A stretch of 64,000 bases of DNA. It comes from a virus. Its lineage: Duplodnaviria; Heunggongvirae; Uroviricota; Caudoviricetes. A program made the translations under genes and the position numbers. Under the pieces are notes generated by a model. It was given only the letters and a program-made list of their open reading frames with translations. It made no database searches and was not told where the DNA came from. Position 1 is the first letter of the stretch. Each line of letters starts with the position of its first letter. The stretch lies in the IMG/VR virus record IMGVR_UViG_3300045988_005640. The stretch is one strand, 5' to 3'. This document shows, one piece after another, positions 2,838-4,253 of this stretch.

Positions 2838-4253
2838 ATGAGCGAATTATTTAAACATGCGCACCTTCATGCAGGTCGAACTGAAAATGGTGCTGTAAAC
2901 CATACTTCATCAATGTCTGCTCTTGTAGACTTTTACAAAGCTGCTGGTTCAAGCCGTAGCAATGTAGAAATCTTACCAGACCTGTTCTACAAAGCTTTGC
3001 GTGAGGATGTTGATGTTGCAGTTCGTATTTTACTGCATATGCGAGATGTACGAGAAGGTATGGGTGAGCGTAAAGCCTTCAGAACTGTTTTGCTTCAAGC
3101 AATTGAAGATAAAGTTTTAGAGCCTACACAGGTTCTTCGCATTATGGATAAGATTGCAGAACTTGGTCGTTTTGATGACTTCAAAATCTTCGTAGGTACT
3201 CGTTTCGAGACAGATGCCTTCAAACATTTAGAAGCAGCATTACTAGACCCTGCAACAGCAGGTTTGGCAGCTAAGTGGTTACCACGAGTAAAACCACGTC
3301 ACAAACAGTTTGTAAAACGTTTCTGCAAGTTTGCAAACTTGAGTGAGAAGGAGTATCGCACACTGTTATCTGCACTGTCTGATACGGTTGAGCAAAAAAT
3401 CTCTGCTAATGAGTTTGGTAAGATTGACTACAGTAAGATTCCTTCACTTGCTGCTGCACGTTACCAAAAACTCTTTAACCGTAAAGATGGAGAACGCTAC
3501 AAAGCTTACATTGAGTCCTTATCAAAGGGCGAGACTAAGATTAATGCTGGTGCTGTTTATCCATACGATGTGATTAAATCTGTTAAGTATGGTAATGCAG
3601 ATGTTGCTAATGAGCAGTGGAAAGCACTACCAAACTGGATGGCAGAGGGTGAAAACATTCTATGTATGTCTGATGTTTCAAGTTCAATGTCTTGGGTGAA
3701 TTTTGGTTCAATTACTGCTCTTGATATTGGTGTTTCACTTGCATTGTATGTAGCAGAACGTAATACAGGTTGCTTTAAGAATGAGTTGATGGTTTATTCA
3801 ACAAACCCTCACTTCATTGAACTGAGTGGTGATTTACGAAACCGTCATCGTCAGGTGATGCGACACGTTGAATATGGCTCAACTAACTTACAAGCAGCTT
3901 TTGACCGTATTCTTGAGACAGGTAAAAGAAACAACTTGACTCAGAAAGATATGCCAAGTAAGCTTATCATCTTCTCCGATATGGAGTTCAATCAGGTTGA
4001 TGGAGCTAACGGTCGTACAAACTTTGAAGCAATTCAGAGTAAGTACAAAAAAGCTGGATATGAGATGCCACAACTGGTATTCTGGTACTTAGCAAACCGT
4101 AATGGCACTTGCGAAGTATCCGTTAAGGATAACGGTGTAGCAATGGTATCTGGTTTCTCTCCAGCCACTTTAAAAGCTCTGCTTGGTGGTGAGAAGTTTG
4201 ACCCAATCAGCGTAATGCTCAAAGCAGTAATGATTGACCGTTACATCTGGTAA
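2838..4253 (+). CDS. vWA-domain protein with MIDAS motif; possibly Ro60/TROVE-like
   Basis: 471 aa; DxSxS MIDAS in ILCMSDVSSSM followed by vWA-like strands (LIIFSDMEF.., GFSPATLKAL); helical N-terminal two-thirds. The Ro60-like call rests on recalled similarity to the Ro60 C-terminal region (DVSASM, GFDTGALDVI) and is not verified. Confidence 0.7.
   Translation: MSELFKHAHLHAGRTENGAVNHTSSMSALVDFYKAAGSSRSNVEILPDLFYKALREDVDVAVRILLHMRDVREGMGERKAFRTVLLQAIEDKVLEPTQVLRIMDKIAELGRFDDFKIFVGTRFETDAFKHLEAALLDPATAGLAAKWLPRVKPRHKQFVKRFCKFANLSEKEYRTLLSALSDTVEQKISANEFGKIDYSKIPSLAAARYQKLFNRKDGERYKAYIESLSKGETKINAGAVYPYDVIKSVKYGNADVANEQWKALPNWMAEGENILCMSDVSSSMSWVNFGSITALDIGVSLALYVAERNTGCFKNELMVYSTNPHFIELSGDLRNRHRQVMRHVEYGSTNLQAAFDRILETGKRNNLTQKDMPSKLIIFSDMEFNQVDGANGRTNFEAIQSKYKKAGYEMPQLVFWYLANRNGTCEVSVKDNGVAMVSGFSPATLKALLGGEKFDPISVMLKAVMIDRYIW

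Follow-up and report, generated by a model that had tools for sequence, protein, structure and literature searches.

Particles formed by Ro60 and Y RNAs are found from bacteria to humans. They are a major autoantigen, and their core function is still debated. Known Ro systems include the eukaryotic Ro60–Y RNA system, the bacterial Rsr–YrlA/YrlB system, and the Ro60–Yrl1/Yrl2 system of Thermus phage phiLo. The canonical Y RNA signature is a CGAA bulge (PMC12135203).

Two phage proteins have already been connected with this family. Bas63 gp130 was reported to be Ro60-like and to counter the Ppl defence: gp130 alone, either plasmid-borne or inserted into T7, rescued T7 on Ppl, and gene 130 was dispensable on hosts without the defence (PhageMaP preprint, 10.1101/2024.10.10.617714). 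Because gp130 alone was sufficient, the anti-Ppl phenotype does not need the Bas63 RNAs. The same preprint guessed that "some tRNA genes are possibly Y RNAs" (10.1101/2024.10.10.617714). In Listeria phage CKA15, protein CKA15_055 was matched to Rsr by HHpred, and abundant unannotated same-strand transcripts upstream of its gene were proposed to be Y RNAs (PMC12282133).

Here we describe a related locus in a window of 64,000 nucleotides (the whole stretch of DNA analysed, IMG/VR record IMGVR_UViG_3300045988_005640). The window comes from the genome of a Felix O1-type myovirus (Felixounavirus); over region 2000-10000 it shares 96-97% identity with Escherichia phages including Tribble and Barry. 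It encodes a protein that is 97.9% identical to Bas63 gp130 and homologous to CKA15_055; the relative in Listeria phage List-36 is ~29% identical. The Ro60-like reading of the protein is therefore already in the literature for an ortholog, and the addition made here is a set of candidate RNAs. The Bas63 candidates were annotated tRNAs, whereas ours are the spacers between tRNAs. The locus also differs from Ro60 and Rsr. At 471 aa the protein is about 65 aa shorter than Ro60 (538 aa), it lacks a match to Pfam TROVE, and over its N-terminal 235 aa no similarity in sequence to Ro60/Rsr can be detected. The RNA signature is a 7-bp stem with a single-stranded (A)CAGCAA and a 3' G, in contrast to the bulged helix with CGAA of Ro60 Y RNAs.

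A Ro60-like protein encoded ahead of a tRNA array

The gene, its domains and its surroundings are as follows (all on the + strand).

2769..2798, +: sigma-70-like promoter TTGACA-18-TAAAGT (10/12), 40 nt 5' of the Ro-like gene, from a consensus scan
2838..4253, +: Ro60-like protein gene, ortholog of Bas63 gp130; ATG start, 471 aa, DUF2828 and DUF7788, PHROG 850
2838..3632, +: N-terminal all-helical domain, aa 1-265, superimposing on the HEAT-like TROVE ring of Ro60 in the predicted model
3657..4202, +: Ro60-type vWA domain, aa 274-455 (DUF7788), with complete MIDAS, from profiles and alignment
4272-4300, +: promoter-like site TTGACA-17-TAATAT ahead of the tRNA/small-RNA array, from a consensus scan
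4363-4392, +: promoter-like site TTGACA-18-TAAAGT with TG ahead of the array, from a consensus scan
4419-9791, +: tRNA array of 26 genes with modules M1–M4 embedded (ARAGORN)

The array starts 166 nt past the stop codon of the Ro-like gene, and ARAGORN places all 26 tRNAs on the + strand. An inverted repeat, TGACAGACT...AGTCTGTCA, overlaps the promoter-like site at 2769..2798. As a class, the promoter-like sites found by the consensus scan showed no enrichment over shuffles. A tmRNA in the array found no confirmation: ARAGORN called none, and the Rfam scores (29 and 15 bits) were below threshold. The other neighbours of the gene, besides tRNAs, are DUF5681, a PD-(D/E)XK endonuclease and DUF7338.

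The Ro-like gene is not a chance open reading frame, since it is conserved in 251 phage records at 77-100% nucleotide identity and its protein has homologs in 710. The homologs belong to phages of Escherichia, Salmonella, Vibrio, Listeria, Staphylococcus, Campylobacter, Enterococcus, Bacillus, Mycobacterium and others. At least 2,545 relatives are present in a large protein collection, and 453 stretches with relatives were confirmed in bacterial genome assemblies. Depositors labelled the homologs "hypothetical", "vWFA protein", "DUF2828 family protein" or "RNA-binding protein"; those of cluster-L mycobacteriophages are called "Ro-like RNA binding protein", and the one in Salmonella phage 7t3 "structural protein".

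A first-pass annotation, made from the letters alone, had described the 471-aa frame with its DVSSSM MIDAS motif, a helical N-terminal region, and a vWA-like C-terminal domain resembling that of Ro60. The motif spans aa 279-284 (nt 3672-3689). Across a family alignment of 48 sequences the full MIDAS set is invariant (D279, S281 and S283 at nt 3672-3686, T349 and D381), as are many basic residues. Profile searches, proposed at that stage as a check against TROVE, vWA and DUF families, gave a divided answer. The protein matched DUF7788 (PF25043; E 1.8e-43, 148.8 bits, cut-off 27.1) and DUF2828 (PF11443; E 3.9e-29, 102.2 bits, cut-off 29), as did all 48 aligned relatives, and phrog_850 ("RNA-binding protein") matched it full length (E 4e-184). 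Pfam TROVE (PF05731) matched neither the protein at E <= 1 nor any of the 48 relatives at E <= 10.

Similarity to Ro60 was detectable over the C-terminal part. We compared a profile of the family with a TROVE/Ro60 profile of seven canonical sequences (human Ro60, its sequence validated against 9nen_A, and six phage Ro60s) using hhalign. The two aligned over 208 columns with 84% probability and E 7.2e-6; against a single Ro60 sequence the result was marginal (34%), and the seven-sequence profile was needed to reach 84%. The aligned region comprised the last ring helices (AVYPYDV ~ RIHPFHI), the MIDAS including DVSxSM, and a C-terminal GF(S/D) motif. Pfam's Ro60 vWA domain (PF25045, vWA_Ro60) was also matched by 10 of the 48 relatives, with a best E of 1.7e-4. 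The suspected C-terminal likeness thus held up. Other routes were negative: N-terminal sequence similarity was undetectable (hhalign of aa 1-235 against TROVE 1-320, probability 0.2%, E 0.26), a profile search against PDB sequences gave just a sub-threshold MIDAS match to 9l5y/9kop (E 1.6), and neither phmmer against PDB sequences nor NCBIfam provided a route to Ro60.

The N-terminal half was placed by structure prediction. An AlphaFold2 model built on the 48-sequence alignment (pLDDT 90.1, pTM 0.89) is all-helical in its N-terminal part (aa ~28-265) and alpha/beta in its C-terminal domain, as had been anticipated. It superimposes on Ro60 1yvp_A over 392 residues, with the N-terminal helices on the HEAT-like TROVE ring, and 2i91 is also among its top structural matches. 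The full-length match is specifically to Ro60 and not to assembly vWA proteins. The predicted model has the Ro60-type arrangement of antiparallel HEAT-like helices and a vWA domain, with a ring part of ~265 aa versus ~360 in Ro60, or ~95 residues shorter. Together, the predicted fold and the partial sequence homology to Ro60 support the suggestion of a Ro-like protein and point to a divergent Ro60-type member: a predicted ring of HEAT-like helices joined to a MIDAS-bearing vWA domain. PADLOC models gave 0 defence-protein families at E <= 0.01, and we rejected a reading as a defence protein.

Related RNA modules in the tRNA spacers

The array downstream of the gene contains four paralogous modules, all on the gene strand.

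4585..4663, +: M1, short Y-like RNA candidate filling the tRNA-Glu/tRNA-Met spacer; lower stem TGAC/GTCA, internal loop AGA/G, upper stem AGACCAA/UUGGUCU, then UU-ACAGCAA
4752..4822, +: M2, short Y-like RNA candidate filling the tRNA-Met/tRNA-Asn spacer; lower stem TTGC/GCAA, upper stem AGACCG/CGGUCU, variant motif UCAGCAA
5146..5225, +: M3, short Y-like RNA candidate between tRNA-Asp and tRNA-Lys; lower stem GAGC/GCTC, upper stem AGACCAA/UUGGUCU, then AU-ACAGCAA
5233..5370, +: M4, candidate for a long Y-like RNA, between tRNA-Asp and tRNA-Lys; lower stem TTAC/GTAA, with a permuted tRNA-like domain set in the shared frame of terminal stem and ACAGCAA

In RNA folding, M1–M4 share one common terminal architecture: a lower stem, an AGA/G internal loop, an upper stem AGACC(A/G)/(U/C)GGUCU, 2-3 nt, and (A/U)CAGCAA, with a G after the 3' strand in every module. 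The 4-bp lower stems differ and covary among the four. The string AGAAGACCN5CAGCAA has four exact occurrences, which are confined to the array spacers; with <=2 mismatches it has five matches versus 0.53 expected, and no shuffle reached five. The 5' UTR of the Ro-like gene itself lacks the CAGCAA mini-element present at other loci. Rfam found no Y RNA or YrlA in the window (1-12000 at E <= 1; 5080-6320 at E <= 10). The modules appear to be an undescribed small-RNA family, and they are probably the RNA partner of the Ro-like protein.

The RNA family is linked to the gene across phages

Stem-flanked ACAGCAA elements also occur beside the gene, on the gene strand, in other phage contigs. Our comparison set was 80 phage contigs whose protein relatives are 38-47% identical. 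An initial motif scan (a 6-7-bp stem beside ACAGCAA) was dropped: 40% of shuffled controls reached 7 bp, and covariance models therefore replaced it. Model R1 was built from 21 short modules of other phages, with the window excluded. Model R2 represents the long form and was built from M4 with a hand-checked structure. For the long modules, MAFFT followed by RNAalifold returned no structure, as the alignment had not been made on structural grounds, and single-sequence folds and the hand-structured R2 were used instead.

R1 recovered the held-out M2 with 31.4 bits (E 1.4e-4; 6e-5 in a later search) and M1 with 26.3 bits (E 0.003; 0.0014 later); R2 scored them at 38.5 and 35.2 bits. M3 was recognised weakly by R1 (18.2 bits, E 0.5), so its assignment relies on paralogy to M1, M2 and M4.

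Over three sets of loci, 167 of 168 R1 matches were on the gene strand: 75 of 76 in the window and phage contigs (21 of the 76 being the training sequences), 22 of 22 in ten cultured-phage loci outside training, and 70 of 70 in bacterial-assembly loci, where 47 of 80 loci have matches. R2 matches behaved likewise (46 of 47). R1 matches were found mostly in the gap abutting the gene; by hand count, ~58 of the 70 in bacterial-assembly loci lie <1 kb away. They come from phages of Listeria, Staphylococcus, Campylobacter, Rhizobium, Bacillus, Enterococcus and Mycobacterium. Some are upstream of the gene (three each in Listeria List-36 and CKA15, three in a Rhizobium phage, two in Campylobacter CP81) and others downstream (three in Staphylococcus 6ec, two in mycobacteriophage Tyson). 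At ~40-45% of loci no R1 match was present within the flanks examined.

The stems of these elements covary. Among the 72 non-training matches, 99.4% of stem cells were paired, versus 38-45% with slid partners, and 191 of 503 cells carried compensatory double changes, versus 46 +/- 10 in shuffles (0 of 500 shuffles reached the observed count); these statistics are partly model-fitted because the matches were selected for stem and motif, a choice that exaggerates pairing without adding to how diverse the pairs are. CAGCAA was invariant in 70-72 of the 72, an A preceded it in 63, and a G followed the 3' strand in 68. This is an RNA family that exists, covaries and is tightly linked, in a strand-specific manner, to DUF2828-type genes in many dozens of independent loci.

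Six canonical TROVE phage Ro60 loci, which served as a control, gave no R1 match at E <= 10. Rfam YrlA was found at such loci (52 bits in Gordonia phage Boopy, 37 bits in Alice), and the Boopy match sits in a tRNA array downstream of the Boopy Ro gene. The absence of R1 there goes beyond GC content alone, since GC-rich DUF2828-type mycobacteriophages do match.

The published relatives carry the same elements. We considered the top-transcribed region of CKA15 (26,236-26,727, or 1906-2397 of the extracted locus L100) as a module cluster and rejected it, as it held no CAGCAA module and no Rfam match. The three CKA15 modules occupy the following gap, which adjoins the gene on its upstream side (L100 3078-3345). 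An RtcB ligase gene is found near the Listeria homolog. In Bas63 (extracted locus L002), two small minus-strand CDSs are annotated over this part of the genome: bas63_0137 (8430-8582) overlies the M4 equivalent (8454-8595) and overlaps the end of the R1 match equivalent to M3 (8373-8447), and bas63_0138 (8594-8704) is downstream of the M4 equivalent, at the position of a structure at 5371-5512 in the window. The PhageMaP text makes no mention of these small CDSs (g137/g138) over the RNA region.

The long module has the topology of YrlA

The permuted tRNA-like element that the first-pass annotation had noticed in the array is real, and corresponds to M4. Within its terminal stem lie a T-arm (5292-5308, GAAGG-UUCGAUU-CCUUC, with a canonical UUCGAUU loop), a closed hairpin (5309-5326) and a D-arm-like hairpin (5328-5344). 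This permuted order appears in both the MFE and centroid folds of M4, and was also found in BigCheese and in two further loci (L077 and L026). The single-sequence folding z-score of M4 is modest (-1.7). In 7 Felixounaviruses M4 is 100% identical save for a 1-nt loop indel in two; among phages of this kind the Ro-like gene beside it varies by 3-5%.

R2 found full-length relatives of M4 in Bacillus phage FADO (48 bits, E 8e-9), several metagenomic phages (44-47 bits), a Rhizobium phage (37 bits), Yersinia P778 (36 bits), BigCheese (33 bits) and Cronobacter S13 (30 bits), where the element is annotated "tRNA-Ser/tRNA-OTHER". In distant lineages, including Mycobacterium phages, M4-type long modules were detected with E 8e-9 to 4e-4.

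YrlA (RF02553) shares with M4 and its relatives a terminal stem, T-arm, closed "acceptor-like" hairpin and D-arm, in that order. It lacks the CAGCAA junction motif and an extra small hairpin, which are both features of the M4 type. The topology of M4 is thus that of YrlA, but its covariance score is not: Rfam YrlA did not match M4 in the window (5080-6320) at E <= 10, and the relatives L077 (36.7 bits, E 1.8e-4), L071 (26.7 bits) and BigCheese (21.7 bits) all fell below the gathering threshold of 69 bits.

A proposed Ro-like RNP

We propose that the Ro60-type protein and the phage-encoded Y-like RNAs M1–M4 act together as an RNP, an explanation that we regard as fairly probable as a whole. The protein most likely assembles with these small RNAs. 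The modules would be co-transcribed with the tRNA array from the promoters just downstream of the Ro-like gene, and set free as the tRNAs on either side are processed by RNase P and 3'-end nucleases; such release by tRNA end-processing is suggested by the exact fit of M1 and M2 in their spacers. By analogy with Ro60, which reads a conserved helix and a CGAA bulge on Y RNAs, the protein would then read three features: the terminal stem, the unpaired (A)CAGCAA where stem meets loop, and the G that follows the 3' strand. Like YrlA, the tRNA-mimic module of M4 could recruit tRNA-binding or exonucleolytic enzymes. The physical contact between protein and RNA, the way the RNAs are processed and how Ppl is inhibited are all inferred.

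Such a particle would act early in infection on the 3' ends of nucleic acids, serving RNA quality control or protection as well as counter-defence. A role in RNA remodelling or protection could be imagined from the Rsr/YrlA/PNPase analogy and the RtcB gene near the Listeria homolog. On Ppl, the protein alone may thread or cap single-stranded 3' ends as Ro60 does with misfolded RNA, or it may use host RNAs, since the phenotype transferred to T7 needs no phage RNAs.

We wondered whether the protein is simply a stand-alone anti-defence factor that, by its ring or its vWA/MIDAS surface, binds Ppl or caps ssDNA 3'-OH ends and so blocks the exonuclease, with the RNA modules unrelated or regulatory. 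We consider this unlikely, although gp130 alone restores T7 plaquing on Ppl with no Bas63 RNA present. Ppl is reported to be a 3'-5' exonuclease that acts on ssDNA and responds to 3'-OH ends as its trigger (PMC12904381), Ro60 threads single-stranded 3' ends through its cavity in 2i91, and the presence of the Listeria homolog in purified virions (20 peptides, 57% coverage) would fit an injected protector. Yet host RNAs could have substituted in the T7 experiment, the DUF2828-type family is far more widespread than Ppl-bearing hosts, and a covarying, same-strand RNA family beside the gene, absent from TROVE loci, is left unaccounted for. Such stand-alone action and the RNP are mutually compatible. 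The same virion peptides, together with the "structural protein" label in 7t3 and the fact that vWA proteins are MoxR co-chaperones in some phage assembly systems (PMC7824862), could instead point to a virion or assembly component, structural or chaperone-associated, whose Ro60 likeness reflects reuse of the fold without RNA function. This we find very improbable. The gene lies among early and tRNA genes, outside the morphogenesis module, and gene 130 is dispensable on non-defended hosts; no AAA+/MoxR ATPase is adjacent, and on this gene context we rejected the MoxR/vWA chaperone reading. Moreover, the full-length match is to Ro60 specifically, and the RNA linkage would go unexplained.

The stem-CAGCAA elements could also be cis-acting signals for the Ro-like gene or the tRNA array: leaders, attenuators, or processing or stability elements. 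In most bacterial-assembly loci they lie 0-500 nt upstream of the gene, and at six loci ~40-nt mini-versions abut the RBS/ATG. But elsewhere the elements are downstream of the gene (in six loci of our set, in Staphylococcus 6ec and in mycobacteriophages), they come in 2-4 tandem copies, and the long forms contain a complete tRNA-like module. In the window, promoters and tRNAs separate the modules from the gene, whose 5' UTR is without the motif. A UTR mimic of the partner RNA, used for autoregulation, fits the RNP equally well, and we judge a purely cis-acting role to be quite improbable. No rival accounts for the linkage between RNA and gene as well as the RNP does.

The RNP reading also suggests a place among known systems. 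The best-supported comparison is with a variant Ro60–Y RNA system in which the short modules resemble YrlB and the tRNA-mimic long form resembles YrlA. More tentatively, and with somewhat less confidence than doubt, we suggest that DUF2828/DUF7788 proteins are a second, divergent Ro60-type ring lineage with its own CAGCAA Y-like RNAs, whose RNP would be a general device of phages for handling or shielding nucleic-acid 3' ends. Found in 710 phage records versus 358 for canonical Ro60, the DUF2828-type proteins are no less widespread in phages than Ro60 itself. In that lineage the RNAs would be of short and tRNA-mimic forms, released in Felix O1-type phages from the tRNA array precursor, and the RNP, possibly packaged in the virion, would account for the resistance of phages to defences that, like Ppl, use a 3'-5' exonuclease.

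Implications

The study of phage versions of Ro60–Y RNA is only now beginning. If the M1–M4 family are true partners of the protein, >700 phage genomes and hundreds of bacterial assemblies gain a testable RNP model, which would bring defined RNA sequences and a recognition motif to proteins now called "hypothetical", "vWFA" or "RNA-binding". The RNA dependence of the anti-Ppl activity of Bas63 gp130 would become dissectable. It would also mean that a conserved family of small RNAs is encoded in the spacers of phage tRNA arrays, which annotators usually pass over or mislabel as tiny ORFs or odd tRNAs. With two Ro lineages, one with a CGAA and one with a CAGCAA signature, comparison could reveal the essentials of Ro–RNA recognition, and a defined RNA family makes the "phage Ro-like RNP" directly testable.

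Possible structured RNAs and an endonuclease-like frame in the tRNA array

Besides the candidate Y-like RNA modules (a stem followed by CAGCAA), the tRNA array of the window holds three further features:

5371-5512, plus strand: structured segment directly 3' of M4, the long, permuted tRNA-like module, with a 22-bp terminal stem around three or four hairpins
5845-5880, plus strand: tag-peptide-like frame, inside spacer 5752-5998
6244-6765, plus strand: 173-aa ORF inside the array, matching PDDEXK_5 of the PD-(D/E)XK endonuclease family (E 8.5e-17)

The first of these folds with a minimum free energy of -46.4 kcal/mol, and one of its hairpins, the small CAGAC-CUUAAGCAA-GUCUG-G, resembles the signature of the modules; judged from this predicted fold, it may be a fifth structured RNA. 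The Bas63 annotation places small minus-strand CDSs in the same part of the array, with bas63_0137 lying over the equivalent of M4 and bas63_0138 just downstream of it.

The second feature, GCA AAC GAC AAT GTT TTT CTG GCA GTA GCT TGA TAG, encodes ANDNVFLAVA followed by two stop codons and resembles a tmRNA tag peptide (ANDENYALAA in E. coli). It is preceded by a strong promoter-like site (TTGACA-17-TATAGT, 5767-5795). In this region the Rfam models tmRNA_permuted and tmRNA scored 29 and 15 bits, both sub-threshold, and ARAGORN called no tmRNA. The frame is unchanged in seven close relatives, but this identity is uninformative. Bona fide tmRNA genes lie within 6 kb in several distant loci of the Ro-like family (L026, L027, L031, L034, and L046).

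The third feature looks like a homing-endonuclease insertion, and the ORF is missing at the equivalent position in typing phage 1. Translation probably begins at an internal start, since the ORF as listed starts in overlap with tRNA-Ser (6314-6400). Ppl, the defence system countered by Bas63 gp130, has been reported to sense the 3'-OH ends produced by phage homing endonucleases, which makes this ORF relevant here.

Neighbourhoods of the Ro-like gene in other phages

In Cronobacter phage S13, two annotated features lie just downstream of the Ro-like gene:

L093 5896-6138: features labelled 'tRNA-Ser' (121 nt) and 'tRNA-OTHER' (113 nt)

Both coincide with a 30-bit match to R2, the covariance model built from M4, at 5939-6073 (an M4-type long module). 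They are probably mis-annotated Y-like RNAs.

In Listeria phage CKA15, record positions 26,236-26,727 are the most highly transcribed unannotated region reported (PMC12282133). This region maps to 1906-2397 of our CKA15 locus (L100), where three tiny CDSs are annotated, and by eye a TTGACA...TATAGT promoter-like sequence precedes it. Neither a CAGCAA module nor a match to any Rfam family occurs in it; this abundant ncRNA, some 500 nt long, is distinct from the modules. In Pecentumvirus phages, genes for a 'tRNA splicing ligase' of the RtcB type and for an HD phosphohydrolase follow the Ro-like gene at a distance of a few genes (List-36, L084 6810-8021; L100 6269-6449), a neighbourhood that recalls the bacterial rsr-yrlBA-rtcBA RNA-repair operon.

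A full-text literature search for DUF2828, one of the Pfam families of the Ro-like protein, gave hits only in papers on plants (potato, wheat, poplar, and Casuarina) and on tardigrades. DUF2828 therefore reaches into eukaryotes; the papers found apparently did not consider a Ro60-like nature or an RNA partner.

Upstream region and possible autoregulation

The following features lie upstream of the Ro-like gene, in the window and in distant loci:

Window 2385-2756, plus strand: DUF5681 gene (E 2e-14)
Window 2770-2805: 9-bp inverted repeat TGACAGACT/AGTCTGTCA, overlapping a promoter-like site between the DUF5681 and Ro-like genes
L013 1761-1799; L048 5904-5947; L016 2856-2894; L040 5903-5949; L028 5900-5941; L012 ~5945-6000: mini-modules of ~40 nt (short stem and ACAGCAA)

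In Felixounaviruses the DUF5681 gene lies ahead of the Ro-like gene and points the same way; Yersinia phage P778 has a small ORF at the equivalent position. The inverted repeat may be an operator. The 5' UTR of the window's Ro-like gene carries no mini-module. In the distant loci each mini-module lies immediately upstream of the Ro-like gene's RBS and ATG, a placement that suggests autoregulation of that gene through a 5'-UTR mimic of a partner RNA.
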